From contig JAJTGZ010000006.1 of NCBI GenBank assembly GCA_021299385.1, positions 9,926 through 73,925 of the forward strand: a stretch of 64,000 nt of DNA. Direction: 5' to 3'. The position numbers and the translations under genes are program-made. Below the pieces are notes generated by a model. That model did not search any database. It worked only from the letters and a program-made list of their open reading frames with translations, and had not been told where the DNA came from. The stretch is from Phycisphaeraceae bacterium. Its GTDB lineage: Bacteria > Planctomycetota > Phycisphaerae > Phycisphaerales > UBA1924. Below, one piece after another: positions 5,317-62,497 of this stretch (the first letter of the stretch is position 1; the number at the start of each line of letters is the position of its first letter).

Positions 5317-5486
5317 GAGCAAGGGTAGTGCGGGGGTTTTGAGGCCAGGGAGAAGAGGTTCGCGGAGGGGGATGGGGGCGTGAAGTACGCAGACCCGATC
5401 AACTTCCGATTGCCGGTGGTGCCGCCAATACAGACAGCGCAAACTCATACGGATCAACACGGGATTCGTGCGTGCGAAGTGGCCAA

Positions 5487-5520
5487 CCCCACCCCTGCCC
5501 CTCCCCTCGGGGGAGGGGTT
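5487..5520 (-). repeat. 34-nt intergenic element AACCCCTCCCCCGAGGGGAGGGGCAGGGGTGGGG (copy 1, reverse orientation)
   Basis: Exact 34-mer shared with 27902-27935, 38238-38271 and 62520-62553. It contains the 9-bp stem hairpin CCCCTCCCC-CGA-GGGGAGGGG and four G4 runs. Confidence 0.9.
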
Positions 5521-5628
5521 CTGAATCAAAAACATTCGCGATCCGCGTCGTTTCTTCCTCTGCGTTGCTCTGCCAAGCTCCGCCCCCTCGGCGAACCTCT
5601 TTGCCTTGCGTGAGACTACCCTAAGGGC

Positions 5629-7077
5629 GTGGACCACCTTTCAGTATTTGACATGTTCAAGGTCGGCGTCGGGCCGAGTTCGTCGCACACGATGGGGCCG
5701 TGGCGTGCGACGGAGCGGTTCCTGGCGTTTTTGCGCGCTTGCGGGGTGTTTGAGCGGGTCAGGCGGGTGCGGGTGGATTTGTTTGGGTCGCTGTCAAAGA
5801 CCGGGCATGGGCACGGGACGGATGTAGCCGTGATCTTGGCGCTGACGGGGGACGACCCTGTTACGTGCGACACCGCCAGCATCGACGCGCGGACCGCGGC
5901 GGTGCGGGCGGGCAAGCAGATCACGCTGGGGGGGACGCGCAAGGGGTTTGCCTTTGACCCGGCACGGGAAATCATCTTCCGCAGCGAGACGCTCGCTTAT
6001 CACCCCAACGCGATGACGTGCACGGCGACGCTGGATGATGGGGTGGAGGTTGCGCAGACCTACTACTCCATCGGGGGGGGCTTTGTGGTGCAGGAGGGTG
6101 CGGAGGGCGCGGGGGATGCCAGGCCTGCACCGCCGTTTATCATCCATACGGGCGCGGACCTGCTGCGTGCGTGCGTGGCGACGGGCAAGAGCATCCCGGA
6201 GATTGTGCTGGCCAACGAGTGCGCGTGGCGGAGTGAGGCGGAGGTGCGTGCGGGGCTATTGCACATCTGGCAGACGATGACCGAGTGCATCTGGCGCGGC
6301 TGCCACACGTTTGGGACGCTGCCGGGCGGGCTGAACGTGCGCCGGCGAGCGGCAGAGATGAGCGGCCGGCTGCTGGGGGTTGCCTCCGGGTTTGCCGGGG
6401 ACCACACCGGTGGGGACATTGGGGCGTGGAAGGACGCGGTGCGGGCGGCGGGTCAGGACTTCACGAAGATCAACAAGTGGGTGAGCTGCTTTGCGCTGGC
6501 CGTCAACGAGGAGAACGCCTGCTTTGGGCGTGTGGTAACGGCACCGACGAACGGGGCGGCGGGCGTGATCCCGGCGGTGATGATGTACTACGACCGGTTC
6601 TGCGCGAGCACGCCGGGGGGGATTGTGGACTTCATGCTCGTGGCCGGGCAGGTCGGTGCGCTGTTCAAGCGGAACGCGACGATCAGCGCGGCGATGGGTG
6701 GGTGCCAGGCCGAGATCGGGGTGAGCAGCGCGATGGCGGCGGCGGGGCTGTCGCAGGCGACGCTGGGTGAGCTGGCGACGCCGGCGCGGGTGTTGATGGC
6801 CGCTGAGATCGCGATGGAGCACCACCTGGGGATGACGTGCGACCCGATCAACGGGCTGGTGCAGATCCCGTGCATCGAGCGGAACACGATGGGTGCGATC
6901 AAGGCGATCACGGCGACGAACATCGCATGCGAGAGCGACCCGGCGGGCGCGAAGGTGAGTTTCGATGACGTGGTGCGGACGATGTGGCAGACGTCGCTGG
7001 ACATGCAGAGCAAGTACAAAGAGACCGCCGAGGGTGGGCTGGCGGTGAATGTAACGGTGGGGTTGAGTGAGTGCTAG
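5629..7077 (+). CDS. sdaA: L-serine ammonia-lyase (L-serine dehydratase, single-chain Fe-S type)
   Basis: The N-terminus '[20 protein letters not shown]' is close to E. coli SdaA '[20 protein letters not shown]'. Full-length ORF, with start GTG 5629 or ATG 5653. Confidence 0.9.
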
Positions 7078-7116
7078 GGGTGCGGGGCGGGGGTTTTAAC
7101 CTGCGCACAAAGGCAG

Positions 7117-7218
7117 TTCACCACAGAGGCACGGAGGCACAGAGAATACAGGGGCGGGGGAAGAATCAAAGACCAAAGTCCCTGTCTTTCTCGGTGCCTC
7201 GGTGCCTCAGTGGTGGAA
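7117..7218. repeat. Imperfect inverted repeat of the TTCACCACAGAGGCAC(G/T)GAGGCACAGAGAA family
   Basis: The left arm is 7117-7146 and the right arm (complement-like, TTCTCGGTGCCTCGGTGCCTCAGTGGTGGAA) is about 7188-7218. The same family recurs at 15805-15920. Confidence 0.75.
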
Positions 7219-7324
7219 TCTATCTGCTGTGCATGCTGGAAGCCTGCCCTACTGAGAGCTGCCCCTGCCGATCTTCGCCAGAACGATCTGGGGGTGGGGT
7301 TCTGATGAGCGTGTGCGGGGGTTG

Positions 7325-7924
7325 TTACTTTGTTGATGGGAGTGGTGGGAGGGTGTCGGCTGGCGGGGCAGAGGGTGCGCTGATGCGCTCGGCGAAGAAG
7401 ATGACGGTGCCGTTGCGGTCGGGTGGGGCGGGTGAGCGCTGGCCACGCTGGATGGTGGTGGTGCCTGCGAGGGTGGCGGTGGGGAGTGGGTAGAGGTCGG
7501 TGAGGAGTTCGCGGACTCGGTTTTGTGGGATGAAGGAGACCTGGCCGTCGAGGGTGAGTTGGCCGTCGGCGCCGGGGGGGAGGACGACGGGGATCTCGAA
7601 GCGCTGGACCGACTCGCCGGGGACGACGAGTTTGGCATCGCGCTGAGCGGTGAAGGTGCCGACGGCGGCGCGGGAGGAGTAGTTGATGGCTTTGAGCGGG
7701 ATCTCCCGGTCGCTTGGGTTCTGCGCATCGACAACGACGTGCAGGACGGTGGCCTGGGGGTTTTCGGAATAGACATAGGCCTCGCGGACGGAGAGGACCG
7801 GGGACTGGCCGGCGCACCCGGCTAGGAGGGGTGCGAAGAGGGCGAGGGCCACGAAGCACGCAATAGGCCGACGCGCGGTGCGGGCGTGTGCGGGCGTGGT
7901 TGCGCTGGGTTGGGCGTGTGTCAT
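7325..7924 (-). CDS. lipoprotein with a LEA-2/WHy-like domain (tentative)
   Basis: Lipobox 'LLAGC'. The pattern 'VLHVVVDAQNPSDREIPLKAINYS' resembles the NPN-type strand pattern of LEA_2 domains. Start is ATG 7924 (a TTG at 7948 is possible). Confidence 0.5.
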   Translation of the reverse strand: MTHAQPSATTPAHARTARRPIACFVALALFAPLLAGCAGQSPVLSVREAYVYSENPQATVLHVVVDAQNPSDREIPLKAINYSSRAAVGTFTAQRDAKLVVPGESVQRFEIPVVLPPGADGQLTLDGQVSFIPQNRVRELLTDLYPLPTATLAGTTTIQRGQRSPAPPDRNGTVIFFAERISAPSAPPADTLPPLPSTK

Positions 7925-17595: not shown

Positions 17596-20500
17596 ATGAG
17601 CCAGACGCCTGATCAACCTGTTGCGGGTACGTTGCCGAGTGATGGGCCTGAGCACAGGTATACGGCTGTGCTTGCCGAGCGGATCGAGGGGCGTTGGCAG
17701 CGGTGGTGGGCCGAGCGGGGGACGTTTGTGCAGCCGAACCCGGGTGAGGTGGGGTTTGACGCCTCGCGCCCGAAGTTTTATTGCCTGGACATGTTCCCGT
17801 ACCCGAGCGGTGCGGGGCTGCACGTTGGGCACCCCGAGGGGTACACGGCGACGGACATTTTGTGCCGGTATAAGCGGGCCAAGGGGTTCAACGTGCTGCA
17901 CCCGATGGGGTGGGACGCGTTTGGGTTGCCGGCGGAGCAATACGCGATCCAGACGGGCGTGCACCCGGCGGTGACGACGAAGGGGGCGATCGAGAACTTT
18001 CGTAGGCAGTTGCAGCGGTTTGGGTTCTGCTATGACTGGAGCCGGGAGGTCGGGACGATTGATCCGGGGTATTACAAGTGGACGCAGTGGGTGTTTATCC
18101 AGTTGTACGAGGCGTGGTTCGACCACGAGCAGCAGAGGGCGCGGCCGATTGCGGAGTTGGTCGAGGAGTTTGCCAGCGGGAAGAGGGAGGTGGAATACAA
18201 CCCGAGGGGGGAGGGGGGGGAGAGTGGTGCCGGGCTGGGGGAGTGGGCGGGTTTGGACAAGCCAACGCAGAGGAAGGTGCTGGCGAGTTATCGCTTGGCG
18301 TACCAGAGCACGACGACGGTGAACTGGTGCCCGAAGCTCGGCACGGTGCTGGCCAACGACGAGGTGATCGACGGCCGGAGCGAGCGCGGCGGGCACCCGG
18401 TGCTGCGCAAGCCGATGCGGCAGTGGATGCTGCGGATTACGGATTACGCAGACCGGTTGCTGGGGCAGTTGGACTCGCTGGCGTGGCCGGAGAGTACGAA
18501 GACGATGCAGCGGGAGTGGATCGGGCGGAGTGAGGGTGCGGAGATTGAGTTTGGGTTGGGTGGGGACGGGGTTTTGGATTTGGGTACCCCCACGCTCCGC
18601 GTGGGGACTCCCGACCCCACGCGGAGCGTGGGGGTACCCGGCCCCACACGGAGTGTGGGGGTACCCATACACGAGGAGGCAGCCGAGGGCCGGGTGGGGA
18701 GACATCCAACGCTGTCAGGATCAGAGATTGACGGGATCGCGGCGCGGCCGGATGAGGCTTCGCACCCGACGGGGTTTGTGGCCTGCGACCCCTACCCGCC
18801 CGGCGGGGTGGGGTTGTCGGGTGATGCGGCGAGGTCGGAGCGGAACTTGCCGCATATTACGATGCCGGGCGCGACGTACTTTGTGTCGTGGCGGTGCCAG
18901 GATGGGTTGGTGCTCAGCGAGCGCGAGAGGGGGGTGGTGCTCGACTCGCTTGTGCACTTTGACGGCGAGCGTGGGAGGGTCTTCGCGGCGGTGGTGATGC
19001 CGGACCATGTGCACTGGATAGTCAGGCCCGGCGAGGGGTTTGAGCTGGGCAAGTTGGTCGAGAGCGTCAAGCACTTTGCCGCCCAGGAGATCAACAAGAT
19101 GCGCGGGAGCAAGGGGCGGCTGTGGGAGCCGGAGGCCCTTGACCACATCGTGCGTGATGAGAACTCGTTTGGGAAGTATGTTGCGTATGTGGTGAGGAAC
19201 CCGGTTGAGGGTGGGTTGGTTGATCGTGCGAGTGATTATGGTGCGCTGTTTGTGCATGCGGATGTGCGCAGCCGGGTGCCCCACGCGGAGCGTGGGGGTA
19301 CCCAAAGGCAGGGTGCCCAAAGGCAGGGTACCCGAAGGTGGGGTACCCAAGGCAGGGGGTTGACTGTTTTTACTACGCGGCCGGATACGTTGTTTGGGGC
19401 GACGTACATGGTTGTGGCCCCCGAGCATGAGCTGGTTGGGCGGGTGTTGGCCGCGCCTGGGCCGAGGACCGATGTCGGCAAGGTCTCGGCGTATGTCCAG
19501 GCCGCTCGGCACAAGAGCGATGTTGATCGGCAGGAGGCCAAGACCAAGACGGGGGTTGATCTGGGTATCGATGCGGTCAACCCGGCGACGGGGGGGGCGA
19601 TACCGGTGTGGGTGGCCGATTATGTGCTGATGGGGTATGGGACGGGGGCGATCATGGCCGTGCCTGGGCATGATGAGCGGGACAATGAGTTTGCGGCGGC
19701 GATGGGGTTGCCGGTGGTGGAGGTTGTGCGGCCACCTGCGGAGTTCAAGGGCAAGCCGGGGGTGTGCTTTAGCGGCTCGGGCACGGCGATCAACTCTTCG
19801 GGGCCTGAGGTCTCGATCGACGGGCTGCCGACGGCCGAGGCGAAGGGGAAGATCATCGCGTGGCTGGAGGGGAGCGGGCGTGGGGTGCGGAAGGTGAACT
19901 ATCGGCTGCGCGACTGGACCTTCAGCCGGCAGCGGTATTGGGGTGAGCCGATCCCGATTGTGTTTGATGAGCACGGGGACCACTACCCGGTGAGCGCATC
20001 GCACTTGCCGGTGGTACTGCCGGAGTTGGAGGATTATGCCCCGGCTGAGAGCGACGATGCGCAGCCGCTGCTCGCTAAGGCGAAGGCGTGGATGAATACA
20101 ACCGCAGGCGCAGCGGGGATTGAAGGGGTTGACCCCGCGCTGGACCACCCCAGCTCGCCGGTTACGCGCGAGGCCAACACCATGCCCGGCAGCGCAGGCT
20201 CGTCTTGGTATTTTCTGCGGTACTGCGACCCGAAGAACACCTCGGCGTTCATCGATCCGAAGATCGATGCGTATTGGATGGGCAATGGTGTTGACTTCTA
20301 CATCGGCGGCAGCGAGCACACGGTGGGGCACCTGCTCTATGCGCGGTTCTGGCAGAATGCGCTGTGCGACCTGGGGCACGTTACGTGCCGGGAGCCGTTT
20401 CGGAGGCTGTTCCATCAGGGGATGATCACGAGCTTTGCGTATCAGCGCGGCGACAAGAGCCTGGTGCCCGTTGATGAGGTGGACGAGGGGCCCGAGGGTG

Positions 20501-21246
20501 TCTTTGTTGAGCGTGCCACGGGCAAGGTGGTCGAGCAGATCGTTGCCAAGATGAGCAAGAGCCTCAAGAACGTCATCAACCCTGATGAGATCATCGCCGG
20601 GTATGGGGCGGACACGTTCCGGCTTTATGAGATGTACATGGGGCCGCTGGAGGCGAGCAAGCCTTGGAACACCAAGGACATCATCGGGCCGTTTCGGTTC
20701 TTGCAGCGGCTGTGGCGGAACGTGATCGATGAGCAGAGCGGGGCGGTGGTGCTGGCAGGCGAGGGGGCGCCGGCAGAGTTGACGCGGCTGGTGCACCGGA
20801 CGATCGCGGGTGTTACGCAGGACATCGAGAATATCTCGCTGCACACGGCGATTGCCAAACTGATCGAGCTGAACAACGCGGTCACCAAGGCCGCCGCGGC
20901 GGGGCCGGTGCCCAAGAGCATCATCGAGCCGATGCTGGTCTTGCTTGCGCCCTTTTGCCCGCACATCTGCGAGGAACTTTGGTCGCGCCTCGGGCACGAG
21001 AAGACCATCGCCGACGCGCCGTGGCCGACGCACGACCCGGCGATGCTGGTGGATGAGACGGTGGAGATTCCGGTGCAGGTGCAGGGGAAACTGCGTGGGA
21101 AGGTGCTGGTGCCGGCGGGGTCGGACGCCAAGACGATCGAGCAGATCGCACTTGCAGACGCCAAGGTGCAAGGGGCGCTAGAGGGCAAGCCGATCAAGCG
21201 GGTGATCGTGGTGCCGGGCAAGCTGGTGAATATTGTTACGGGGTGA
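17596..21246 (+). CDS. leuS: leucyl-tRNA synthetase carrying an in-frame insertion of about 269 aa (RAYT-like domain) before the CP1 editing domain
   Basis: 'PYPSGAGLHVGHPEGY' (HIGH motif), 'VNWCP', 'TTRPDTLFGATYMVVAPEH', 'VNYRLRDWTFSRQRYWGEPIP' and 'KMSKSLKN' are present. It is one uninterrupted ORF of 1216 codons. Confidence 0.9.
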   Translation: MSQTPDQPVAGTLPSDGPEHRYTAVLAERIEGRWQRWWAERGTFVQPNPGEVGFDASRPKFYCLDMFPYPSGAGLHVGHPEGYTATDILCRYKRAKGFNVLHPMGWDAFGLPAEQYAIQTGVHPAVTTKGAIENFRRQLQRFGFCYDWSREVGTIDPGYYKWTQWVFIQLYEAWFDHEQQRARPIAELVEEFASGKREVEYNPRGEGGESGAGLGEWAGLDKPTQRKVLASYRLAYQSTTTVNWCPKLGTVLANDEVIDGRSERGGHPVLRKPMRQWMLRITDYADRLLGQLDSLAWPESTKTMQREWIGRSEGAEIEFGLGGDGVLDLGTPTLRVGTPDPTRSVGVPGPTRSVGVPIHEEAAEGRVGRHPTLSGSEIDGIAARPDEASHPTGFVACDPYPPGGVGLSGDAARSERNLPHITMPGATYFVSWRCQDGLVLSERERGVVLDSLVHFDGERGRVFAAVVMPDHVHWIVRPGEGFELGKLVESVKHFAAQEINKMRGSKGRLWEPEALDHIVRDENSFGKYVAYVVRNPVEGGLVDRASDYGALFVHADVRSRVPHAERGGTQRQGAQRQGTRRWGTQGRGLTVFTTRPDTLFGATYMVVAPEHELVGRVLAAPGPRTDVGKVSAYVQAARHKSDVDRQEAKTKTGVDLGIDAVNPATGGAIPVWVADYVLMGYGTGAIMAVPGHDERDNEFAAAMGLPVVEVVRPPAEFKGKPGVCFSGSGTAINSSGPEVSIDGLPTAEAKGKIIAWLEGSGRGVRKVNYRLRDWTFSRQRYWGEPIPIVFDEHGDHYPVSASHLPVVLPELEDYAPAESDDAQPLLAKAKAWMNTTAGAAGIEGVDPALDHPSSPVTREANTMPGSAGSSWYFLRYCDPKNTSAFIDPKIDAYWMGNGVDFYIGGSEHTVGHLLYARFWQNALCDLGHVTCREPFRRLFHQGMITSFAYQRGDKSLVPVDEVDEGPEGVFVERATGKVVEQIVAKMSKSLKNVINPDEIIAGYGADTFRLYEMYMGPLEASKPWNTKDIIGPFRFLQRLWRNVIDEQSGAVVLAGEGAPAELTRLVHRTIAGVTQDIENISLHTAIAKLIELNNAVTKAAAAGPVPKSIIEPMLVLLAPFCPHICEELWSRLGHEKTIADAPWPTHDPAMLVDETVEIPVQVQGKLRGKVLVPAGSDAKTIEQIALADAKVQGALEGKPIKRVIVVPGKLVNIVTG
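18583..18665. repeat. Three 24-nt REP units (GGTACCCCCACGCTCCGCGTGGGG): forward 18583-18606, reverse 18615-18638, reverse variant 18642-18665
   Basis: Units 1 and 2 are perfect reverse complements. Unit 3 differs at two positions that are compensatory within the hairpin stem (CACGC/GCGTG changed to CACAC/GTGTG). Confidence 0.9.
19279..19302 (-). repeat. 24-nt REP unit (CCCCACGCGGAGCGTGGGGGTACC) at the right flank of the RAYT-like domain
   Basis: Exact reverse complement of the unit at 18583-18606. Confidence 0.9.
19296..19354 (+). repeat. About four tandem 15-nt units GGGTRCCCRAAGGYR
   Basis: GGGTACCCAAAGGCA / GGGTGCCCAAAGGCA / GGGTACCCGAAGGTG / GGGTACCCAAGGCA. Within LeuS this is translated as 'GTQRQGAQRQGTRRWGTQG'. 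Confidence 0.8.
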
Positions 21247-22735: not shown

Positions 22736-23482
22736 TCAGCGGCGCAGTTGGGTGATGATCCCGGCACGCTGGTCAGCTGGGGCACCAAAGAGTGCCGTCG
22801 CGGCGACGATGACGTTGCAACCGGCTTCTCGGGCCGAGGGGGCGGTGGTGGGGTTGAGGCCGCCGTCCATTTGCAGGTGTTGATGGGCGTTGAGTTTGGG
22901 CTTGATTGCGCGGCATTTGTCGAGCACTTCGGGGATGAAGGCCTGCCCGCTGAAGCCGGGATTGACGCTCATGACCAAGACGAGGTCGACAATGTCGAGG
23001 TGGGGCCAGAGCAGGTCGATCTTGGTCGGCGGGTTGATCGCGACGCCGACGGTCAGGCCGAGGTCGCGGGCCTGTTTGGCGAACTCGGCACCCGCGGCGG
23101 GGGAGAGCACCTCGCAGTGGTACGTTACATGGTTGGCCCCTGCCTTGGCAAAGGGCTGGATGAACCTGGCCGGGTCGGCGACCATGAGGTGCACGTCCAG
23201 GAGTGCGCCGGGGCAGGCGGCGCGGACGCCCTTACAGACATCGGGCCCCATTGTGAGGTTGGGGACAAAGTGCCCGTCCATGACGTCCAGGTGCAGCAGG
23301 TCGGCGCCCGCGGCGAGGATTTGCTGGCAGTCGCGGGCCAGGTGGCCGAAGTCCGCCGAGAGGATCGAGGGGGCGATAAGCGTGCGGGGTAGGTCGGCTC
23401 CCCGAGCCGACAGTCCTCCCTCGGCGTTGGTTGAGTCATTGAACCGCATGGACAGAGGGTAACCCCCCGGCGGCTTGTCCAC
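22736..23482 (-). CDS. rpe: ribulose-phosphate 3-epimerase
   Basis: 'IAPSILSADFGHLA', 'LHLDVMDGHFVPNLTMGP' and 'VMSVNPGFSGQAF' are present. The start is GTG 23482 or ATG 23449. Confidence 0.9.
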   Translation of the reverse strand: MDKPPGGYPLSMRFNDSTNAEGGLSARGADLPRTLIAPSILSADFGHLARDCQQILAAGADLLHLDVMDGHFVPNLTMGPDVCKGVRAACPGALLDVHLMVADPARFIQPFAKAGANHVTYHCEVLSPAAGAEFAKQARDLGLTVGVAINPPTKIDLLWPHLDIVDLVLVMSVNPGFSGQAFIPEVLDKCRAIKPKLNAHQHLQMDGGLNPTTAPSAREAGCNVIVAATALFGAPADQRAGIITQLRR

Positions 23483-23635: not shown

Positions 23636-25243
23636 ATGCAGAGCCTCCTTGACCGCCTGGACCTTTCCCCCTCCCGCACGCACTCGAACCTGGCCCCTGC
23701 CAGGCTGGTAGAAATGGCCGTGGCAAGGGGTGAGGGGGTCCTGGCCAGCAACGGGGGGCTGGTCGCCAAGACCGGCGACCGCACCGGCCGCAGCCCCAAG
23801 GACAAGTACCTCGAGGACACCCCGGGCATCCACGACAAGATCGGGTGGGGTGGGTTCAACACCCCGATAAAGCCGGGGAACTTTGATAAGGTGGTGGGGA
23901 TCGCGATCGACCACCTCAACGCGCAGAAGGACGTGTTTGTGTTTGAGGGGTTTGTGGGAGCCGACCCGAAGCACCGGCTGGGCGCACGCGTGATTGCCGA
24001 GCAGGCGTGGCACAGCCTCTTTATCCGCACGCTTTTTATCCCCCAAGGCTCGCCCGCGGCGGGGACGGACGCGCAGGGCCGGCCGGCAAAGTGGAAGCAC
24101 GACTGGACGATCCTCAACGCCAGCAAACGGCGCTTGACGCCGGCGGAGCAGGCCGAGCTGGGGGTGAAAAGCCCGGTGATCATCGTGCAGAGCCTGGAGC
24201 GCAAGCTGGTGGTGATCGTCGGCAGCGAGTACGCCGGGGAGATGAAAAAGAGCCTGTTTTATGCGATGAACTACGACATGCCCGAGCAAGGGGTCTTCCC
24301 GATGCACTGCTCGTGCAACGTTGCCAAGGACGACCCGAAGAACGTGGCGCTCTTCTTTGGCCTCTCGGGCACGGGCAAGACGACGCTCTCGGCGGACCCT
24401 GCGCGTGCCCTTGTGGGCGACGATGAGCACGGGTGGAGCGACAGGGGTGCCTTCAACTTTGAGGGTGGGTGCTACGCCAAGTGCATCAAGCTCTCAAAGG
24501 AGGGTGAGCCTGAGATTTGGGATGCGATCCGGTTTGGGAGCGTGCTGGAGAACGTGGTGATCGACGGGCAGACGCGCGTGCCGGACTATGACAGTGATGC
24601 GCTGGCGGAGAACAGCCGGGCGACGTACCCGCTGGAGTTTATCGATGGCGCAGTGGTCCCGAGCCTGGCTGGGCACCCGAGGAACGTGGTTTTCCTGACG
24701 GCCGATGCGTACGGCGTGATGCCCCCGATCGCACGTTTGAGCCGGGAGCAGGCGATGTACTACTTCATCAACGGGTACACCAGCAAGTTGGCGGGGACGG
24801 AGTTGGGTGTCAAGGAGCCGCAGCCGAACTTCAGCGCGTGCTTTGGCGGGCCGTTTTTGCCCAGGCCGGCGATGGTCTATGCGCAGATGCTCGCCGACCG
24901 GGTCAAGAAGCACAACGCGGATGTTTGGCTGCTGAACACGGGGTGGACGGGCGGCCCGTATGGCGTGGGGGAGCGATTCAAGTTGGCGTACACGCGTGCG
25001 TTTGTACGGGCGATTTTGGATGGGTCGCTCAAGGGGGTCAAGTGCGAGCCGGACGCGGTCTTCGGGCTGCCGATCCCGGCCGAGGTGCCCGGCGTGCCGT
25101 GGCGGCTGCTCAAGCCGAGGAACGCGTGGGCAAGCGGGGTCGAGTATGACCGGCGTGCCAAGGACCTGGCGGCAAAGTTCCGCGACAACGACAAGAAGTT
25201 TGACATGCCCGAGAACGTCCGCTCGGCTGGGCCGAGGGGGTGA
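23636..25243 (+). CDS. pckA: phosphoenolpyruvate carboxykinase (ATP)
   Basis: 'TGRSPKDKY', 'FFGLSGTGKTTLSADP...LVGDDEHGW' and 'NTGWTGGPYGVG' are present. Start is ATG 23636. Confidence 0.9.
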   Translation: MQSLLDRLDLSPSRTHSNLAPARLVEMAVARGEGVLASNGGLVAKTGDRTGRSPKDKYLEDTPGIHDKIGWGGFNTPIKPGNFDKVVGIAIDHLNAQKDVFVFEGFVGADPKHRLGARVIAEQAWHSLFIRTLFIPQGSPAAGTDAQGRPAKWKHDWTILNASKRRLTPAEQAELGVKSPVIIVQSLERKLVVIVGSEYAGEMKKSLFYAMNYDMPEQGVFPMHCSCNVAKDDPKNVALFFGLSGTGKTTLSADPARALVGDDEHGWSDRGAFNFEGGCYAKCIKLSKEGEPEIWDAIRFGSVLENVVIDGQTRVPDYDSDALAENSRATYPLEFIDGAVVPSLAGHPRNVVFLTADAYGVMPPIARLSREQAMYYFINGYTSKLAGTELGVKEPQPNFSACFGGPFLPRPAMVYAQMLADRVKKHNADVWLLNTGWTGGPYGVGERFKLAYTRAFVRAILDGSLKGVKCEPDAVFGLPIPAEVPGVPWRLLKPRNAWASGVEYDRRAKDLAAKFRDNDKKFDMPENVRSAGPRG

Positions 25244-25259
25244 TTTTCGGAAAAATTCG

Positions 25260-25297
25260 CCCTACGACTTGACATATGTCAAGTCGTAGGGTATGTT
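25260..25297 (+). promoter_or_regulatory. Perfect 32-bp palindrome overlapping a sigma70-like promoter (putative autoregulatory operator of the TA module)
   Basis: CCCTACGACTTGACAT|ATGTCAAGTCGTAGGG spans 25260-25291. TTGACA is at 25269-25274, followed by a 17-nt spacer and TATGTT at 25292-25297. It lies about 90 nt upstream of ATG 25384. Confidence 0.55.
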
Positions 25298-25383
25298 ACT
25301 CCGATGGAGTACCTGTCGGCTGAATCTGTGTTGTTGATGTACCATCCGACGCAAGGAAGCTGTCATGGTTAGCCTAGCCCTGA

Positions 25384-25776
25384 ATGGCCAAACTTTATCC
25401 TGATAACAGCACGTATCAGGTGATTGCAAGGATTCTTAAGGAAGCCTGTGCTGGTCTACAGCCTGACCCGGTTCTGATGAAGCGTGTCGCGTTGGACAAG
25501 ATGGTGAAGTTCTGGGGCAATCTGACCTTTAAAGGCTTGCTGGCGATACTGAACGAGCACGTAGTGACTAGAAATCCGATCAGCCAGGTGAAAGAGACAC
25601 GCGAGGAGTACTGCAGGGAGCATGAGTTTCACTACGACTTTGTCGTCCCAGCACCGGCCGGGTCGAAATATCCGAAGATCTATGTCGAGGCGAGACTCGA
25701 CGACGGGGCTCGCGATCAGGACAGTTGGCGTTTGATAATCTTGAGCATTCATCCTCCTAACCGATCGAATCCCTGA
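25384..25776 (+). CDS. putative toxin (MqsR-like by context and C-terminal pattern)
   Basis: 130-aa ORF in a lower-GC islet, ending 1 nt before the start of the MqsA-like gene. 'YPKIYVEARL...WRLIILSIH' loosely recalls the MqsR C-terminal strands. The family assignment is tentative. Confidence 0.45.
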   Translation: MAKLYPDNSTYQVIARILKEACAGLQPDPVLMKRVALDKMVKFWGNLTFKGLLAILNEHVVTRNPISQVKETREEYCREHEFHYDFVVPAPAGSKYPKIYVEARLDDGARDQDSWRLIILSIHPPNRSNP

Positions 25777-25777
25777 T

Positions 25778-26302
25778 ATGACTAGTCAATCATTTAACCC
25801 GCGTTGCCCCTGCTGCAAGAGCGATTCTCTGGAAAAATCGACCGAGGCTGTAGATCGCGAGTATGCGTTTGAGGGCCGCAGTGTGGCCGTCTCGCTCCCA
25901 GCCGTGCCGGTGCTTCGGTGCCGGTCGTGCCAAGAGGTCTTGTTCGGGCTCGAGGCGGACGAAGCTCTGACGGCGGAGTTTCGGCGTTTGACAAACCTGC
26001 TGTCGCCGACGCAAATCCGCGCACTCCGCAAGGCACTCGGGTATACCCAGGAAGAGCTCGCGGGCATCATGCGTATCGCAGCCGAGTCGATCTCGCGTTG
26101 GGAACGTGGGCATGTGATCCAGTCGGGGGGGATGGACACCCTTCTGCGGGTGGTCCTGAACGTTTCAGAAGCTCGCCGTGTGCCTGCCCGGCTCAGCCCC
26201 CTTGAGCAGGCGTCATTGACCTACAAAAAAGATTCGACCGGGTGGGCGTCCAAACCGGATGTACTCACCAGCGGCAAACCAGGAATGGCTCGCGCTGCCT
26301 GA
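25778..26302 (+). CDS. MqsA-family antitoxin (N-terminal zinc ribbon plus XRE-type HTH) with a C-terminal extension of about 45 aa
   Basis: 'CPCCK...CRSCQEV' gives CxxC...CxxC. The HTH is 'LSPTQIRALRKALGYTQEELAGIMRIAAESISRWERG'. An extra tail 'RVPARLSPLEQASLTYKKDSTGWASKPDV...' follows. Confidence 0.7.
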   Translation: MTSQSFNPRCPCCKSDSLEKSTEAVDREYAFEGRSVAVSLPAVPVLRCRSCQEVLFGLEADEALTAEFRRLTNLLSPTQIRALRKALGYTQEELAGIMRIAAESISRWERGHVIQSGGMDTLLRVVLNVSEARRVPARLSPLEQASLTYKKDSTGWASKPDVLTSGKPGMARAA

Positions 26303-26309
26303 CGCGAGA

Positions 26310-26849
26310 ATGGAAATGGTAACAAGCAACAAACCCGAGGCCCCTGCTTCACCTGCCGCTGGCGATCCGAGCGTGGTGGCCATGCGTGTAGATGAGATTC
26401 GGTTTATCCGCCTGATCGGCAGCGCATTCGAGTTTCCTCGGCGCCACATGGCCGGGGGTGAGGTGGTCCCGCTGAACATACACGATCACGCCGCTACACA
26501 CCTTGATGGGCGCGATCTTGTTGTACAGATCAAGCTGACCCTACGATTATCAGCGGACGCCGATGCCACGCAGGAGTCTGAGGAATCAGGCGACTTGTTG
26601 CGTATTCGTGGCGAGTTTGAGCTTGCATATCGCTTGTCCGAGGGGGATGCACTATCCGAGGCTGACCTGATGGCATTTGCGCATGTCAATGGTATGATGA
26701 ACGCGGTGCCGTATTGGCGCGAGTTTGTGTCAAGCACACTTGTGCGTGCGGGGCTGCCTTCCTATGAAGTGCCCCCGTTCAACCCATTTAAAATAGCCTC
26801 GGCAATGCGTGCCAAGTCCAAGCCAGCTCAAGAGCCTGCTGCCGATTAG
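26310..26849 (+). CDS. SecB-like chaperone (toxin-antitoxin-associated type)
   Basis: 'LLRIRGEFELAYRLS...LMAFAHVNGMMNAVPYWREFVSSTLVRAGLPSYEVPPFNPFK' parallels SecB '...CPNILFPYARE.I...V.RG.FP.L.L.PVNF'. Start is ATG 26310. Confidence 0.6.
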   Translation: MEMVTSNKPEAPASPAAGDPSVVAMRVDEIRFIRLIGSAFEFPRRHMAGGEVVPLNIHDHAATHLDGRDLVVQIKLTLRLSADADATQESEESGDLLRIRGEFELAYRLSEGDALSEADLMAFAHVNGMMNAVPYWREFVSSTLVRAGLPSYEVPPFNPFKIASAMRAKSKPAQEPAAD

Positions 26850-27901: not shown

Positions 27902-27935
27902 CCCCACCCCTGCCCCTCCCCTCGGGGGAGGGGTT
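27902..27935 (-). repeat. 34-nt hairpin/G-run element (copy 2, reverse orientation)
   Basis: Exact 34-mer (see 5487-5520). Confidence 0.9.
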
Positions 27936-57588: not shown

Positions 57589-60500
57589 TCAATCACTCCC
57601 CGCCGCGACGCGTTTGCGTTCCCACGGCTTGGGTTCGCGTTTGACCATCTCGGGCTTCTTGGCCTCAAACTCCACGGCACCTGGGCCAAGCTCCCTGCCC
57701 GCCCAGGCCAAAAACTCGGCCGTCGGGGTGATGCGCGTGCGGGGCAGGTCCAGCGTGATCTCCGCACCGGCCGTGCGCACGAGCAGCTCGGCGGGCTTTG
57801 GCTCGCCGCCCGGGCGGGCCTGGGCGAGGTGGGCGACAAGGCCGTCGAGCTTTGCCTGCGCGCTGCCGTTGTGCCGGCGCTCGTCGATGACCACACGCAC
57901 GCGAGCGGCCAATAGCTCTGCCGCGGCCTCGATCGGGACGATCTGCTCGGCGATCAGCTGCGACTCACCCCGGCTCATGTCCACCTTGCCGACGATGAAG
58001 ACGATTTTGTCCACCCGTGCCGTCTCGGAATACTTGGCAAAGCAGTCGCTGAAGCAGACGCACTCGACGGTGCCATCTTTGTCCTCGATCGTCAGCACGC
58101 CCATCTTCTGGCCCGCGCTCTTGCCACTCTTGACCACCAGCACACGCACGCCCGCGATGAGCGCGCCGATGGCCACACGCTGGTCCTGCGGGTGCATCTT
58201 CTCGCGCAGCCGGCGTGAGGTGGTGTTGCCCAGGCCCTGCACCAGCGTGGCGTGCTCGTCGAGGGGGTGGCTGCTGACATAAAAGCCCAGCGTCTCCTTC
58301 TCGTGCTGGAGTGTCTCGGTCTCCGTCCACGGCGTGGCACGCGCCAGGGGCGTGCTGGCGGCCTTGACGGCGGGCGCCTGGACCGGGCCGCCGCCCATGC
58401 CACCGCCCATCTCACCGCCCATGCCAAAGAGCCCACCCTGGCCCGACGCGCGGTCGCGTGCGGCACTCAGGCCCGAGGCGACAGCACCCTCGACGGTGGC
58501 GAGCATCGCCGAGCGTGCGGCACGCCCGTGCAGGCAGTCAAACGACCCGCTCTTGATGAGCGCCTCGATGGTCGCCTTGTTGACGTTCCCCGCCGCGCTG
58601 CCGCCGCCGCCACCGACGGGGACGCGCTCGCAAAAGTCGTGCAGAGAGGTGAAGGGCCGAGGGGTGAGGGCCGAGGGGTGAGGGGATGCACCGCCGGTGC
58701 GTTCGCGCAGGATGCTCTCGATCGCCTTGTCCCCGACGCCCTTGATCGCGCCGAGGCCAAAGCGGATGTGCCCGTTGCCGGCCTTGCGCGCCTCACCGTC
58801 GGCAAAGACAACCGCAAAGTCCGCCTGAGACAAGTTGATATCCGGCGGCTTGACCTCGACGCCCACCTTGAGCGTCTTGCCCGTCGCCGGGTCGATCACA
58901 CGCGTGTTCTTGCAGTCTTCAAGGTACGGCACCCAGTCGCTCACCTGGCTTGCTGCGCTCTCAAAGGTCAGGAACGCGGCCATGTACTGCTGCGGAAAGT
59001 AGGTCTTCAAGTACGCCGTCTGATACGCGACGATCGCATACCCCGTGCTGTGGCTCTTGTTAAAGCCATACCCCGCAAACTTGAGGATGAGTTCGAACAG
59101 ATCCTCGGCCCCCTGCTTGCTCAGGCCCTGCGACTGCGCCCCGGCAACAAACTTGGGGCGTTCCTTCTCGATCTTGTCATGCTTTTTCTTGCTGATGTTT
59201 TTGATGAGCGTGTAGGCGTCGCGGAGTTTGATCCCGCCCAGGCCGTGCACGATCTGCATGACCTGCTCTTGGTAGACCATGACGCCGTAGGTCTCGCTGG
59301 TGTACTGATCGACAACGGCGTGCACGTGCGGGACCTCGACCTCGCCGTGCTTGCGTTTGTTGTAATCGGGGATCAGGTCCATCGGCCCTGGGCGGAAGAG
59401 GGCGTTGGCGGCGATGAGGTCTTCGAGGCGGTCGGGCTTCATCTCGACGAGCAGTCGGCGCATGCCGGGGGACTCAAACTGGAAGACGCCGGTGGTGTCG
59501 CCGCGGCGGAAGATTTCGAGCACGGCCTGATCGGTCGGCTCCAGGCGGTCCAGGTCCAGCGGGTGCGGGCCACCATCGCCTTGCGTGCGCCCTACGGCCT
59601 CCCAAACCTGCTCCTCAGCAAGACCCTCATTGATCAATTTCTTGCAGCGTTCCACAACGCTCAGCGTGCGCAGGCCTAAAAAATCCATCTTCAGCAGACC
59701 CATCTGCTCGCACGTCGGGCCGTCCCACTGCGTAACCGTTTCCTGGGTCCCGCTGGGGCGGTAGAGGGGGACTATCTCATCGAGCGGTCGCGTGGCGACG
59801 ATGACGCCCGCGGCGTGCACGCTCGCGTGCCGGGCTTGGCCCTCGATGGCCCGCGCATTGTCGATGATCCTCTGGACCATCGGGTCGCGGTCGTAGATCG
59901 CACGCAAATCCGGCTCCTGCTCCAGGGCCTTGTCCAGCGTGATGCCAACCTGCTCGGGCACAAGCTTGGCGATCTTGTCAACCTCCGCCAGCGGCATCTC
60001 CATCACGCGCCCAACGTCGCGGATCGCCGCCTTGGCCTTGAGCGTCCCGAAGGTGATGATCTGTGCAACGTGCCCGTACTTGTCGGCAACATACTTGATG
60101 ACCTCCGCACGCCCGTTCTGGCACAGGTCGATATCGATATCGGGAAACTCCGATCGGTCGGGGTCGGTGAAGCGTTCAAACAGCAGCCCGTACTGCACCG
60201 GGCAGGCGTTGGAGAGGCCGAGCACATAGCCGACCATCGTGCCCACGCCCGAGCCACGGGCGTTGGCCGGGATGCCACGCGTGCGACCCCAGTTGACGAA
60301 GTCCCAGACGATGAGGAAGTACGCGGCGATCCCCTTGTCGCAGAGGATTTTCAGTTCGCGCTCCAGGCGTGCGCGTTGGGTACCACCACGCTCCGCGTGG
60401 TGGCTCTCCTGCTCCCCCACGCGGAGCGTGGGGGTACCCGTCGTACCCGAACCCGACGGCCCATACCGCCACACATACCCACCCTCGGCCAGCAATCGCA

Positions 60501-61650
60501 GCGCGTCGTCGCACTCGCTCTTGGCCTGGGCCAGCAGTGTTTGTTTTTCCTGCTCACTGGCGCCATCGGGCAGCACGAACGGCACAACCTCGATCCCCTG
60601 GCAGTACGCCGAGTACCACCTGCTCAGGTCGCCGCCGAACGCGGGGTCGTCGTGGCGCGGCAGTTCACCCTTGCTACGCCTGATCCGCACCATCGGCGCG
60701 TTGTTGGCCCCGATGGGCAGCACCACGTTGCACCGCTCGGCGATCTTCTGCGTGTTCGCCAAGGCCTCCGCGCCCGGTTTGCCATAGGGCTTGAAGATCG
60801 CCGACATCTCTGCCGGGGACTTGACGTAGAGGTTGCCGTCGTACCGCATCCGGTCGGGGTCGTTCTTCGCCTTCCCCGTCGAGATGCAGATCAATGTGTC
60901 GTGCGCGTCGTGGTCCTGGGCGCGCAAGAAATGGCTGTCGTTGTCGCAGACCACCGGCAGCCCGAGCTCATCGGCCAGCGCGATCAGGTGTTTGTTGATG
61001 CTTATCTGCTCGCGCACATGGTGCTGCAGCTCAATGAACATCCTTGGCCCGGTCCCCACGTCGGCAAAGACGCCCGCGTGCCACGTTGCGCTCTCGACGG
61101 CCCGGTCCCAATACGTCTTGTCCCCCGTCCGCTCAAACTCGAGCAGGTGTTCGCCGATCTCGCTGCCCAGGTGCCCGTTGATGGCGATCAACCCGCTGCT
61201 GTGCTGGGCCAAGAGTTTGCGGTCGATGCGGGGCTTGAAGTAGAAGCCTGTCAAGTAGGCCTGCGTGCACAGCTTGAGCAGGTTCTGCCAGCCGGTGTTG
61301 TTCTCGGCCAGCAGCACCAGGTGGTACCCGCCGTCGCCCACGCCGGTGTAGGTCCTGTCTGTGCGGTCGCCCGGCGCGACGTATGCCTCGACGCCAAGGA
61401 TCGGCTTGATCCCGCGCTCCTTGGCGGCCAGATAAAACGCCACCGCGCCGAACATGTTCCCGTGGTCGGTGCACGCCACGGCCCGCATCCCCAACTCGGC
61501 GACGCGGTCCATCAGTTTGTCGATCCGGTTGCCGCCGTCGAGGAGGGAATACTCCGTGTGCAGGTGCAGGTGCGTGAACGCACCGGCCGCGGGGTCGGTA
61601 TTTGAGGCCGAGGGAGACTTCGGGGTCGGGATAGGTTCTTGTGCAGACAT
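57589..61650 (-). CDS. dnaE: DNA polymerase III alpha subunit
   Basis: PHP 'FTHLHLHTEYSLLDG', 'GIAAYFLIVWDFVNW', 'HAAGVIV' and 'FNKSHSTGYA' are present. Start is ATG 61650. It contains a 60-nt REP doublet in frame. Confidence 0.9.
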   Translation of the reverse strand: MSAQEPIPTPKSPSASNTDPAAGAFTHLHLHTEYSLLDGGNRIDKLMDRVAELGMRAVACTDHGNMFGAVAFYLAAKERGIKPILGVEAYVAPGDRTDRTYTGVGDGGYHLVLLAENNTGWQNLLKLCTQAYLTGFYFKPRIDRKLLAQHSSGLIAINGHLGSEIGEHLLEFERTGDKTYWDRAVESATWHAGVFADVGTGPRMFIELQHHVREQISINKHLIALADELGLPVVCDNDSHFLRAQDHDAHDTLICISTGKAKNDPDRMRYDGNLYVKSPAEMSAIFKPYGKPGAEALANTQKIAERCNVVLPIGANNAPMVRIRRSKGELPRHDDPAFGGDLSRWYSAYCQGIEVVPFVLPDGASEQEKQTLLAQAKSECDDALRLLAEGGYVWRYGPSGSGTTGTPTLRVGEQESHHAERGGTQRARLERELKILCDKGIAAYFLIVWDFVNWGRTRGIPANARGSGVGTMVGYVLGLSNACPVQYGLLFERFTDPDRSEFPDIDIDLCQNGRAEVIKYVADKYGHVAQIITFGTLKAKAAIRDVGRVMEMPLAEVDKIAKLVPEQVGITLDKALEQEPDLRAIYDRDPMVQRIIDNARAIEGQARHASVHAAGVIVATRPLDEIVPLYRPSGTQETVTQWDGPTCEQMGLLKMDFLGLRTLSVVERCKKLINEGLAEEQVWEAVGRTQGDGGPHPLDLDRLEPTDQAVLEIFRRGDTTGVFQFESPGMRRLLVEMKPDRLEDLIAANALFRPGPMDLIPDYNKRKHGEVEVPHVHAVVDQYTSETYGVMVYQEQVMQIVHGLGGIKLRDAYTLIKNISKKKHDKIEKERPKFVAGAQSQGLSKQGAEDLFELILKFAGYGFNKSHSTGYAIVAYQTAYLKTYFPQQYMAAFLTFESAASQVSDWVPYLEDCKNTRVIDPATGKTLKVGVEVKPPDINLSQADFAVVFADGEARKAGNGHIRFGLGAIKGVGDKAIESILRERTGGASPHPSALTPRPFTSLHDFCERVPVGGGGGSAAGNVNKATIEALIKSGSFDCLHGRAARSAMLATVEGAVASGLSAARDRASGQGGLFGMGGEMGGGMGGGPVQAPAVKAASTPLARATPWTETETLQHEKETLGFYVSSHPLDEHATLVQGLGNTTSRRLREKMHPQDQRVAIGALIAGVRVLVVKSGKSAGQKMGVLTIEDKDGTVECVCFSDCFAKYSETARVDKIVFIVGKVDMSRGESQLIAEQIVPIEAAAELLAARVRVVIDERRHNGSAQAKLDGLVAHLAQARPGGEPKPAELLVRTAGAEITLDLPRTRITPTAEFLAWAGRELGPGAVEFEAKKPEMVKREPKPWERKRVAAGSD
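60379..60438. repeat. Inverted doublet (REPIN-like) of the 24-nt REP unit inside the dnaE coding sequence
   Basis: GGTACCACCACGCTCCGCGTGGTG (60379-60402), a 12-nt spacer, then CCCCACGCGGAGCGTGGGGGTACC (60415-60438). The total is 60 nt, or 20 codons, translated 'GTPTLRVGEQESHHAERGGT'. Confidence 0.85.
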
Positions 61651-61780
61651 AGAGCGACTCCGGCAAGCAACTGAGGCCACAATCGTACCGACCCCTTCTG
61701 GCCCGAGATCGGCGAGCACGGCACGCTGTCTACTGTTGTCAGTCGTCGTGAGTTCCCGCCCGCGCGGGCATCGGCAAGGG

Positions 61781-62497
61781 ATGTATGCAGACATGGCAAA
61801 GCGCGTGCAAGGACGAGTCCAGGCCAACAGCCACACACACCCCGTCGGCACGCCCAAAAAAATCGTCGTCGGCATCTCCGGCGCGTCAGGCGCTCAGTAC
61901 GCCACGCGCGTTATCGAAGAACTCCTCAAACGCGGGCACCATGTCCATCTGGTCGTAACCGAATACGGCCGGCAACTCCTGCACGACGAACTCGGCATCA
62001 CCAAACTCACCCTCGACCAACTCGTGCCGAGCCTCGCCAGCCAAGCCAAGCAGATCGAGAATATCCGCCTCTATGTCCACCCGCACAAAGACGTCGGCGC
62101 GGTGATCGCCAGCGGGTCGTTTTTGCACGACGGGATGGTCGTCGTCCCCTGCTCGAGCACCGCGCTGGGCTATATCGCCACCGGCTCGGGGAGCAACCTC
62201 CTCGGCCGCGCCGCGATGGTTACGCTCAAAGAACGCCGACGCCTCATCCTCGTCCACCGCGAAAGCCCGCTGAGCCTCATCGACATCAAAAACATGGAGC
62301 AGGTAACACTGGCCGGGGGGATCATCGCCCCGGCCAACCCGGGGTTCTACTTGCTGCCCAAGTCCATCGACGAGGTCATCGACTTCACCGTCGGCAAAGT
62401 TCTGGACCTGCTTGAGATCGAGCACGACCTCAAAACGCGCTGGGCCAGCCGGCGAAGTGAGATCCGCCGGGGGAGGGCGGGGAGTAGCGACGAGTGA
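61781..62497 (+). CDS. ubiX: flavin prenyltransferase UbiX family
   Basis: 'KIVVGISGASGAQYA', 'MVVVPCSSTALGYIATG' and 'ILVHRESPLSLIDIKNM' are present. The start is ATG 61781 or 61793. Confidence 0.85.
   Translation: MYADMAKRVQGRVQANSHTHPVGTPKKIVVGISGASGAQYATRVIEELLKRGHHVHLVVTEYGRQLLHDELGITKLTLDQLVPSLASQAKQIENIRLYVHPHKDVGAVIASGSFLHDGMVVVPCSSTALGYIATGSGSNLLGRAAMVTLKERRRLILVHRESPLSLIDIKNMEQVTLAGGIIAPANPGFYLLPKSIDEVIDFTVGKVLDLLEIEHDLKTRWASRRSEIRRGRAGSSDE

Follow-up and report, generated by a model that had tools for sequence, protein, structure and literature searches.

A REP-associated transposase lies in-frame within the leucyl-tRNA synthetase gene of a Phycisphaeraceae bacterium, and sister strains carry empty, one-tag and replaced alleles of the site

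Few repeat systems of bacteria are as abundant, or as poorly understood, as the repetitive extragenic palindromes (REPs) and the REP-associated tyrosine transposases (RAYTs), and how REPs move is unsettled. Here we analyze a RAYT that lies in-frame inside leuS, which encodes leucyl-tRNA synthetase (LeuS or LeuRS), in a metagenome-assembled genome (MAG) of a Phycisphaeraceae bacterium from the Planctomycetota. The DNA is a stretch of 64,000 nucleotides (assembly GCA_021299385.1, contig JAJTGZ010000006.1, positions 9,926 to 73,925), which we will call the window. Together with REPs on both sides, this RAYT is probably a mobile REP-RAYT-REP cassette whose sole expression is as a domain inside essential proteins of the host.

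The closest described system is the RAYT, or TnpAREP (YafM in E. coli; structure 4ER8), with its REPs, BIMEs and REPINs, together known as a REPtron. Papers on the E. coli enzyme (PMC3333891, PMC3479197) describe a monomer that binds a REP along with the GTAG foot 5' of it, that acts only on single-stranded DNA, and whose cleavage sites include positions within the complement of the foot. Being monomeric is compatible with working as an inserted domain. RAYT genes with flanking REPs are known (PMC2817692, PMC3333891, PMC3479197), as are REPs inside tnpAREP itself (PMC6006769), and Bertels et al. 2017 and later work by Bertels and Rainey treat RAYTs as free-standing, single-copy genes. The leuS locus resembles these systems in its HUH Y1 fold and catalytic motifs, in the inverted cognate hairpins around the gene, each with a tetranucleotide foot on its 5' side, and in the scattering of the same hairpin through the genome as singles and as inverted pairs. 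It differs in that the transposase is not free-standing but is read through from its host. Also, in this lineage GTAC (inside the palindrome GGGTACCC) takes the place of GTAG as the foot, and relatives have GTAG or GTGG; the stem lacks the mismatch that the E. coli enzyme requires and is perfect; and the locus is polymorphic for presence, absence and replacement, whereas classical RAYTs are described as immobile and single-copy (PMC5581495).

Insertion sequences (ISs) of the IS200/IS605 family, such as IS608 and ISDra2, also have a Y1 HUH transposase and subterminal hairpins, and they are compact, as are the relatives of the leuS cassette (500-750 nt from hairpin to hairpin). Their transposition is single-stranded and seamless, with a short specific target and no classical target duplication (PMC3333891, PMC5027513). 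The leuS cassette differs from these ISs in that it falls in the RAYT clade, by both hidden Markov model (HMM) and fold, its ends are inverted copies of one hairpin, and it has no tnpB. Such ISs have several near-identical copies per genome; in the 64-kb window, we saw one copy of the cassette.

Inteins and homing-endonuclease genes are, likewise, selfish elements that sit in-frame at conserved sites of essential housekeeping genes, with empty, occupied and replaced alleles at one codon that probably spread by recombination along with their flanks. In contrast to inteins, the leuS insert has no Hint domain, splicing residues or homing endonuclease, and it presumably stays in the mature protein. 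Short palindromic repeats also sit in-frame inside open reading frames (ORFs), namely the intragenic REPs (Di Nocera 2013, PMC3733652) and the Rickettsia palindromic elements cited there, and are known from tRNA synthetases, DnaE and repair genes (PMC3733652, PMC6006769). The REP arrays in leuS and a REP pair in dnaE are of this type, since they are short palindromes in-frame that leave the ORF intact. However, the intragenic repeats are short and non-autonomous, whereas the leuS insert includes a transposase gene. Finally, IStrons combine a group I intron with an IS200/IS605-type IS, and their insertion into genes is made harmless to the host by RNA self-splicing (PMC4227781). In leuS, the same end is served by an in-frame position in a permissive loop, and we found no ribozyme.

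In a literature search whose coverage was incomplete (most papers in subscription journals lie outside it), we found no description of a RAYT nested in-frame in host genes. The original prediction, which was made from the sequence alone, knew of no precedent. This stands for an embedded transposase, but not for in-frame REPs without a transposase, which PMC3733652 already describes. In other words, the parts of the cassette are known, and it is the nesting of the transposase itself that we could not find described.

We began with the host gene, where the prediction held in each respect. The leuS ORF is uninterrupted, and its product is identical to GenBank MCE2924172.1, which is recorded as leucine--tRNA ligase from a Phycisphaeraceae bacterium MAG. 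The HIGH motif (as HVGH) and the KMSKS motif are intact, and Pfam identifies the class I synthetase, editing and anticodon-binding domains. The insert comprises 269 codons (320-588, nt 18553-19359), between WIGRSEGAEIEF, which ends with F319, and LTVFTTRPDT, which begins with L589. At the equivalent point, immediately ahead of the CP1 editing domain, the LeuRS of T. thermophilus (1H3N) has about 3 residues, and LeuS proteins from sister alleles or relatives that lack the insert have 5-7 residues. The insertion site is a turn of 3-7 residues that directly precedes CP1.

The insert belongs to the RAYT family, as had been proposed by eye; the HMM, the predicted fold and the flanking tagged hairpins agree on this. 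The 269 amino acids scored above the cutoff for the NCBIfam equivalog NF047646 (REP_Tyr_transpos; 81.9 bits versus a cutoff of 80, E = 4e-23) and matched the sequence of E. coli TnpArep (PDB 4ER8, E = 2.6e-6), with the HUH and Y-x-x-x-N-P segments aligned. When we modeled the RAYT module by itself with AlphaFold (107-sequence alignment), the mean predicted local confidence (pLDDT) was 88 and the predicted TM score (pTM) was 0.81. The best match of this model in the PDB, according to Foldseek, was 4ER8_A, a RAYT-REP complex (E = 8.7e-8, TM 0.63), followed by the TnpA proteins of IS200, ISDra2 and IS608. The HUH motif and the catalytic tyrosine are exactly where they had been placed (Table 1). 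In the 59 embedded copies described below, conservation of these residues is 100%, as is that of the conserved Trp, Asp and Arg, and free-standing copies show the same. Unlike a free-standing RAYT gene, the RAYT in the window has neither a start codon nor a stop codon of its own.

We infer that the RAYT is translated as part of LeuS. To model a full-length protein, we discarded an alignment that mixed LeuS with free RAYTs, in which the RAYTs were misaligned, and used another. In the resulting AlphaFold model (P0241, 1192 amino acids; pLDDT 83, pTM 0.70), the RAYT has a pLDDT of 91-96, and the synthetase core and CP1 remain confident. The pLDDT is below 50 solely at residues 300-344 and 537-561, which are the REP-encoded stretches on either side of the RAYT. 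The model thus agrees with the suggestion of a separate fold at the CP1 hinge: the RAYT is predicted to form its own domain between two disordered linkers that are encoded by REPs.

Alternatively, the insert might be removed before the enzyme matures, at the RNA level (as an intron or by processing at the inverted repeats) or by intein-like splicing. The in-frame position in conserved housekeeping genes does resemble the distribution of inteins, and by pairing, the two copies of the perfect 28-nt terminal inverted repeat could form a long stem in the RNA. But an Rfam E-value scan of 18300-19600 found no intron or ribozyme, only sub-threshold matches to generic hairpins, and Pfam gave nothing but Y1_Tnp for the insert and nothing at all for its linkers, so that neither a Hint or intein domain nor a homing endonuclease was seen. 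With Gly, Thr and Gln at the junctions, the intein pattern of Cys/Ser ... His-Asn-Cys/Ser/Thr is not matched. Also, an RNA element would need neither an open frame nor a length that is a multiple of three, and all of the alleles and repeat-number variants described below have both. We consider removal to be very unlikely.

The REPs around the RAYT, which we call REP_A, are arranged as had been described: one forward and two inverted copies on the left and one perfect inverted copy on the right. The RAYT is flanked by a perfect inverted repeat of 28 nt (18579-18606 and 19279-19306), and each arm consists of the tag GGGTACCC and then the 8-bp stem with its TCC loop. The 24-mer GGTACCCCCACGCTCCGCGTGGGG has six matches in the window, where zero are expected by chance: 18583(+), 18615(-), 18642(-, two changes), 19279(-), 60379(+, two changes) and 60415(-). 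The two changes at 18642 are compensatory, as had been noticed. Within the window, TTGGGTACCC is restricted to the ends of the cassette element.

Table 1. Features of the leuS cassette and of the related REP pair in dnaE (positions in the window)
Feature	Position	Strand	Description
leuS host gene	17596..21246	+	single ORF, 1216 codons, 1216 amino acids, no internal stops
Cassette segment	18563..19358	+	796 nt where allele E0 (L149) has 13 nt (ATACCAAGCAAAC)
Left outer segment GGGACGGGGTTTTGGATTT	18563..18581	+	encodes GDGVLDL; also in RAYT-B and F alleles, absent from E0
Left palindromic tag GGGTACCC	18582..18589	+	GTAC variant of the REP GTAG foot; left limit of the presence/absence unit
REP_A copy 1	18583..18606	forward (+)	tag and 8-bp stem CCCCACGC, loop TCC; encodes GTPTLRVG
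Unit missing from F allele (L152/L153)	18590..19348	+	759 nt, 253 codons: REP array, RAYT, right REP, extra tag units
REP_A copy 2	18615..18638	inverted (-)	spaced 27 nt (9 codons) from copy 3
REP_A copy 3	18642..18665	inverted (-)	two compensatory stem changes, perfect 8-bp stem kept
Pre-RAYT motif GFVACDPYPPG	18772..18804	+	common to embedded RAYTs of LeuS, MiaA and ValS; low model confidence
RAYT (HUH Y1) core	18841..19275	+	LeuS residues 416-560; NF047646 and 4ER8, by sequence and fold
HUH motif His-Val-His (HVH)	19006..19014	+	invariant in 59/59 embedded relatives
Catalytic Tyr in Y-x-x-x-N-P helix (YVVRNP)	19186..19188	+	aligns with YIYINP of 4ER8; invariant in 59/59
Right REP_A copy	19279..19302	inverted (-)	perfect match; encodes PHAERGGT; tag GGGTACCC at 19296-19303
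Four degenerate 15-nt units (GGGTACCCAAAGGCA)	19296..19357	+	extra solo tags at 19326-19333 and 19341-19348
REP_A inverted pair (REPIN-like) in dnaE	60379..60438	-	in-frame; dnaE at 57589..61875 (-); peptide GTPTLRVGEQESHHAERGGTQ

Relatives have the same ends. This layout was present in all 12 of the embedded relatives that were first examined, and in a scan of 81 loci, it was present in about 50 of 58 embedded loci and in most free-standing ones. In each, a stem of 7-9 bp with a TCC or TCT loop has, directly on its 5' side, a foot that reads GTAC, GTAG, GTGG or GGAG. In an ungapped alignment of the left-end hairpins of 42 loci, 97.6% of the cells were paired, and double changes were seen at all 8 of 8 pairs. 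There were 120 compensatory cells, versus 32 in shuffles, and none of 500 shuffles reached that number; with slid registers, pairing fell to 32-42%. The tag, as GTAC, GTAG or GTGG, and the TCC loop are conserved among these loci as well. Because we chose the best stem in each arm, the pairing percentage is partly by construction, but the register relative to the foot and loop is not. The reading frame of the hairpin differs by locus (GTPTLRVG in the window, but VGRLSEPT in L012 and L015), so the constraint is on the nucleic acid and not on the peptide.

A short contig (L148; JGI Ga0453144_0114716, positions 1660-1860) that is 98% identical to the window has six inverted REP_A copies instead of two, with the 27-nt spacing. 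This is the contig of P0011. We rejected it as an allele, because it runs into unrelated DNA after the array, which probably reflects a chimera made at the repeat during assembly. The array may, however, really have expanded.

Evidence for mobility or turnover comes from sister strains. We searched with an “emptied” LeuS and then compared the DNA; in these strains, the flanking genes are 93-99% identical at the nucleotide level. The site has five alleles (E0, F, A, A' and B) in four states: empty, one-tag, RAYT-A and RAYT-B. In E0 (L149, which is VYKU01000154.1; identity of its two flanks with the window is 98.8% and 98.2%), the site reads GGGTTGGGTG-ATACCAAGCAAAC-GTTGACC, which encodes GLG-DTKQT-LTVF. 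The TKxT turn is also found in an empty LeuS that is 73% identical, so E0 is the ancestral state, and relative to it, the window has a net gain of 783 nt or 261 codons. F, which comes from two independent sources (L152 from ENA and L153 from Logan), has the outer segments and a single tag (...GGGACGGGGTTTTGGATTT-GGGTACCC-GAGGCAAAGGC-TTGACC). Allele A, in the window and in L151, consists of the tag, three REP_A, RAYT-A, another REP_A, the tag, and three extra 15-nt units; A' (L154) is similar, with a shorter right tail. Allele B (L150 and eight cluster members from NCBI MAGs) has A's outer segments and tag, but its REP stem (CCCGGACC...) is different, and RAYT-B is just 59% identical to RAYT-A. 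In other words, in a background that is 93-96% identical, one tag site holds different RAYT/REP pairs in different strains. The assemblies or records behind the alleles are GCA_009467625.1 (E0), ENA scaffold ERZ28616710 (F), the MAG of MCE2924172.1 (A), GCA_044340135.1 (A') and GCA_046339895.1 (B).

Compared to F, A is longer by 759 nt, A' by 732 nt, and B by 705 nt, all of which are divisible by 3. The number of 15-nt units varies among A, A' and B. Variants in repeat number differ by whole codons: the REP_A copies are spaced by 27 nt, and one unit of REP_B (the REP that accompanies RAYT-B) is 42 nt, which matches the 14-amino-acid difference between P0513 and P0242. The alignments of B and F overlap by precisely the 8-nt tag, with a right flank that is 98.6% identical, so the variable unit is everything between two GGGTACCC tags. 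The tag is present once in F and at both ends in the occupied alleles, which fits with insertion or excision at the tag site, or else with duplication of 8 bp or recombination. F is either an excision product or an unoccupied target. Another LeuS (P0261) has a remnant at the site with REPs only (...GAPTLRVGSAGSGTQ...).

The original prediction had offered a REP/RAYT unit in a surface linker of LeuS that might still be mobile, and both the location in a turn and the allele states support this. In the wider family, the site is occupied in just 8 of the 120 nearest LeuS proteins. Over greater distances, L002 and L015 have LeuS proteins that are 85% identical, but their RAYTs are 49% identical and their REPs differ, which is turnover of the same kind as A versus B. 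Across the LeuS-site loci, RAYT divergence and host divergence are moderately correlated (r = 0.47). Given this and the discordance between L002 and L015, we rejected a single ancient insertion at the LeuS site with purely vertical descent.

These alleles also bear on whether the locus is an artefact, that is, a chimeric contig (which had been named as grounds for rejecting the finding) or a frameshifted pseudogene. There are reasons for suspicion: the related contig L148 looks chimeric at its REP array, and Quentin et al. 2018 set aside long RAYT proteins as gene fusions or annotation errors (PMC6006769). But in L151, an independent JGI assembly, allele A is 99.87% identical to the window over 15.6 kb, and allele A is found in 11 cluster members and allele B in at least 8 MAGs. 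Dozens of independent genomes have the same architecture, the ORF has no interruption, and identity of the host portions to orthologues is 57-70%. An artefact is effectively refuted.

To see how often RAYTs are embedded, we compared a profile of the RAYT module to one genome per GTDB species. This yielded at least 572 relatives, and we examined the best 80. Of these closest relatives, 58 are part of a reading frame that runs without a stop for 380 amino acids or more, in host genes that we identified by Pfam and by BLAST clustering. Seven are in LeuS at the same site as in the window, and three are at a second site in LeuS, near residue 899. The other hosts include ValS, ThrS, AlaS, MiaA, RecG, PriA, MetH, PurH, Ham1/RdgB, DUF1156 proteins and an aminotransferase. 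Most of the carriers are Phycisphaerae or other Planctomycetota, but there are also Chthoniobacterales and other Verrucomicrobiota, and a few other phyla. In one Chthoniobacterales MAG (L050, ORF 2452-7440), a MetH of 1663 amino acids has two in-frame RAYT inserts, both in inter-domain linkers.

As an independent census, we searched 1.84 billion cluster representatives exhaustively with phmmer and obtained 7581 matches, 2177 of them at E ≤ 1e-10. Among the best 150 representatives, 58 have at least 300 amino acids and an internal RAYT. When 45 of those with at least 400 amino acids were scanned against Pfam, they matched 41 families, among them class I aminoacyl-tRNA synthetases (10), Ham1 (7), PurH (5), AlaS (3), and also helicases, DNA methylases, MiaA, Hsp70 and ThiE. 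In a rough neighbor-joining tree, the modules group partly by host gene, which suggests old insertions that were inherited vertically, and are partly mixed, which suggests movement between genes. A profile search of a set of 5.8 billion proteins was uninformative about embedding, as most of its matches were free-standing RayTs of small size, from contigs that were themselves short. A search of plasmids gave only one weak match, from Pseudomonas, which is essentially an absence. Overall, the leuS insertion is not the singular event that it might have seemed: the same in-frame arrangement is found in a dozen or more housekeeping genes from Planctomycetota, Verrucomicrobiota and other phyla.

This diversity of hosts and sites also disfavors another suggestion of the original prediction, that the RAYT is a domesticated module of LeuS. 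More broadly, the HUH domain might be kept for a function of the host (for example, regulation, or tethering to single-stranded DNA or the replication fork) and not for REP mobility. Long retention with intact catalytic residues would fit, RAYTs in general are described as behaving like housekeeping genes (PMC5581495), and the embedded clade has a conserved N-terminal motif of its own, GFVxxDPYPPG. However, the hosts are functionally unrelated (aminoacyl-tRNA synthetases, helicases, MetH, PurH, Ham1, methylases, Hsp70), and the sites within them differ. Sister strains thrive without the insert (E0 and F occur in several assemblies), and few of the nearest LeuS proteins carry it at this site. 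And hairpin ends that are maintained at the DNA level across reading frames are not expected of a module that acts purely as a protein. We therefore think that domestication is quite unlikely.

REP_A is not confined to the cassette. The inverted pair in dnaE and the outer REPs of the leuS cassette share one reading frame, which gives the pair the look of a derivative without the transposase. It lies in what we take to be an inter-domain linker (judging by eye against E. coli DnaE). The coding strand also has a solo GGGTAC, 9 nt upstream of the pair. The exact 24-mer is also found in 65 metagenome contigs (L083-L147), where by a crude test of ORFs and GC content at third codon positions, the copies look mostly intergenic. 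One of these contigs, L083, was considered as a second case of the dnaE REP, but we rejected it, as the gene is different.

Exact copies of REP_B are found in REP_A-bearing metagenome contigs and in assemblies, including VYKU01 (GCA_009467625.1), so the two REP families coexist in one genome. In the window, RAYT-A is the only RAYT that we saw. Just 3' of the dnaE stop codon is a REP_B-like hairpin with two compensatory changes (GGTACCTCGGACCTCCGGGCCGAG, 57560-57583, minus strand). A hairpin with a GTAG foot (GTAGGTCGGCTC-ccc-GAGCCGAC, 23385-23411), which lies upstream of rpe (minus strand, 22736..23482) or at its 5' end, has the same stem as the REPs that flank the LeuS-embedded RAYTs of L008, L012 and L015 and may stand for a third family of REPs. 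Another hairpin repeat, CCCCTCCCC-tcg-GGGGAGGGG, has four copies in the window (5498-5518, 27913-27933, 38240-38260 and 62522-62542) with a common flank, CACCCCTG.

We propose that the cassette works as follows. It consists of a HUH/Y1 gene without start or stop codons and its cognate tagged hairpins, placed in-frame in the LeuRS turn ahead of CP1. It would be transcribed and translated only within leuS, which would yield a LeuRS with an autonomous RAYT on two flexible, REP-encoded linkers. This domain would bind single-stranded REP_A hairpins and cut them at the GTAC tag. Processing of REP_A would maintain and spread the REP_A family, and some copies would also land in-frame in genes, dnaE among them. 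Cutting and rejoining at the tags would insert or excise the entire cassette at a solo GGGTACCC tag. The essential gene would select for versions that are in-frame, free of stops and a multiple of three in length, in permissive loops; as with inteins, this would account for the preponderance of housekeeping genes among the hosts. Imprecise deletion would be lethal, so the site would be a protected niche with constitutive expression. Populations would then cycle among the empty, one-tag, RAYT-A and RAYT-B states, and homologous recombination between strains probably helps to move the alleles.

Indeed, there are signs of recombination at the locus. Between the window and L149, the divergence is 6-11% over about 300 nt to the right of the junction (19359-19660), versus 0-3% elsewhere. 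Between the window and L154, synonymous divergence (dS) is 0.01 to the left of the element and within it, but 0.13 to the right. This suggests recombination breakpoints at the right end of the cassette, and so homologous exchange between strains probably also moves alleles.

Several observations weigh against a mobile cassette. First, recombination tracts adjoin the element, and a unit with 8-bp direct repeats at its limits could come and go through slippage at the tags, through recombination between them, or through exchange of alleles. Second, there is no second cassette in the 64-kb window, and there is no RAYT on the 65 metagenome contigs with REP_A, none of which overlap the window, which gives no sign of replicative transposition. 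Third, VYKU01 carries the empty E0 leuS despite many exact copies of REP_A and some of REP_B. Either RAYT-A does not have to be in leuS, or the assembly is incomplete; the RAYTs of VYKU01 must be elsewhere, lost, or missing from the assembly. Fourth, the difference between E0 and F is more than a simple insertion of the tag, which complicates the first step of the invasion. RAYTs are also generally held to be immobile and vertically inherited (PMC5581495). As for the domain, its only Pfam match, to Y1_Tnp, is marginally under the cutoff (22.6 versus 23 bits). And the ratio of nonsynonymous to synonymous changes (dN/dS) is a powerless test within allele A, since the RAYT cores of the window and L154 have just 2 differences. 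RAYT-A and RAYT-B are too diverged for a meaningful dS.

Many of these points would fit with a RAYT that no longer acts and is a passenger, where the differences among alleles would stem only from homologous exchange of leuS between strains and from replication slippage or recombination at the 8-bp tags: the recombination signatures beside the element, the direct repeats of GGGTACCC at the limits of the presence/absence unit, the lack of a second cassette copy in the window or on the 65 REP contigs, and the powerless dN/dS. On the other hand, the catalytic residues are invariant across 59 embedded copies that are only 35-60% identical overall, and the stems are preserved at both ends through compensatory change at about 50 loci. 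Slippage or exchange does not account readily for the appearance of a different RAYT with its own REPs at the same tag, or for insertions in more than a dozen unrelated genes, with two sites each in LeuS and MetH. A relic would also be expected to decay to REP-only scars like the one in P0261. We consider an inactive passenger to be improbable, although it is a more serious alternative than domestication, and a mobile cassette remains the reading that we favor.

Two features of the window lie apart from the cassette. A segment of 1.6 kb downstream of pckA (25240-26846) is absent from L149 and L150. In the annotation of L151, it has three small genes, one of which has MqsA_antitoxin and HTH_3 domains, so the segment is probably a toxin-antitoxin indel. 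Also, GC skew is strongly positive (0.12-0.32) over 4-32 kb, irrespective of the orientation of the genes around leuS, and is negative over 32-48 kb. We had considered GC skew as an argument about strand or the direction of replication, but we dropped it, because the sign changes within the window.

More broadly, the embedded RAYTs might be an unrecognized class of mobile elements: HUH/Y1 transposons without expression signals of their own that live as in-frame domains of essential proteins, whose fusion to the host is the active enzyme, that enter and exit at a palindromic tag (here GGGTACCC), and that go through an intein-like cycle of invasion, replacement and excision without splicing. We put this forward tentatively, as a nearly even question on which we lean slightly towards doubt.

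Whatever the class, sister strains that differ only by the cassette, in four states, are a natural experiment on RAYT-dependent excision, insertion and the spread of REPs. The cassette also suggests how a transposase can persist in compact genomes: it would borrow the promoter, the ribosome binding site and the selective protection of an essential host gene, in parallel to inteins but without splicing. Oversized synthetases, helicases, MetH, PurH and other proteins of Planctomycetota and Verrucomicrobiota contain nuclease domains that are not annotated. And the insertion sites mark loops in LeuRS, ValRS, DnaE and other enzymes that apparently tolerate inserts of about 250 residues.

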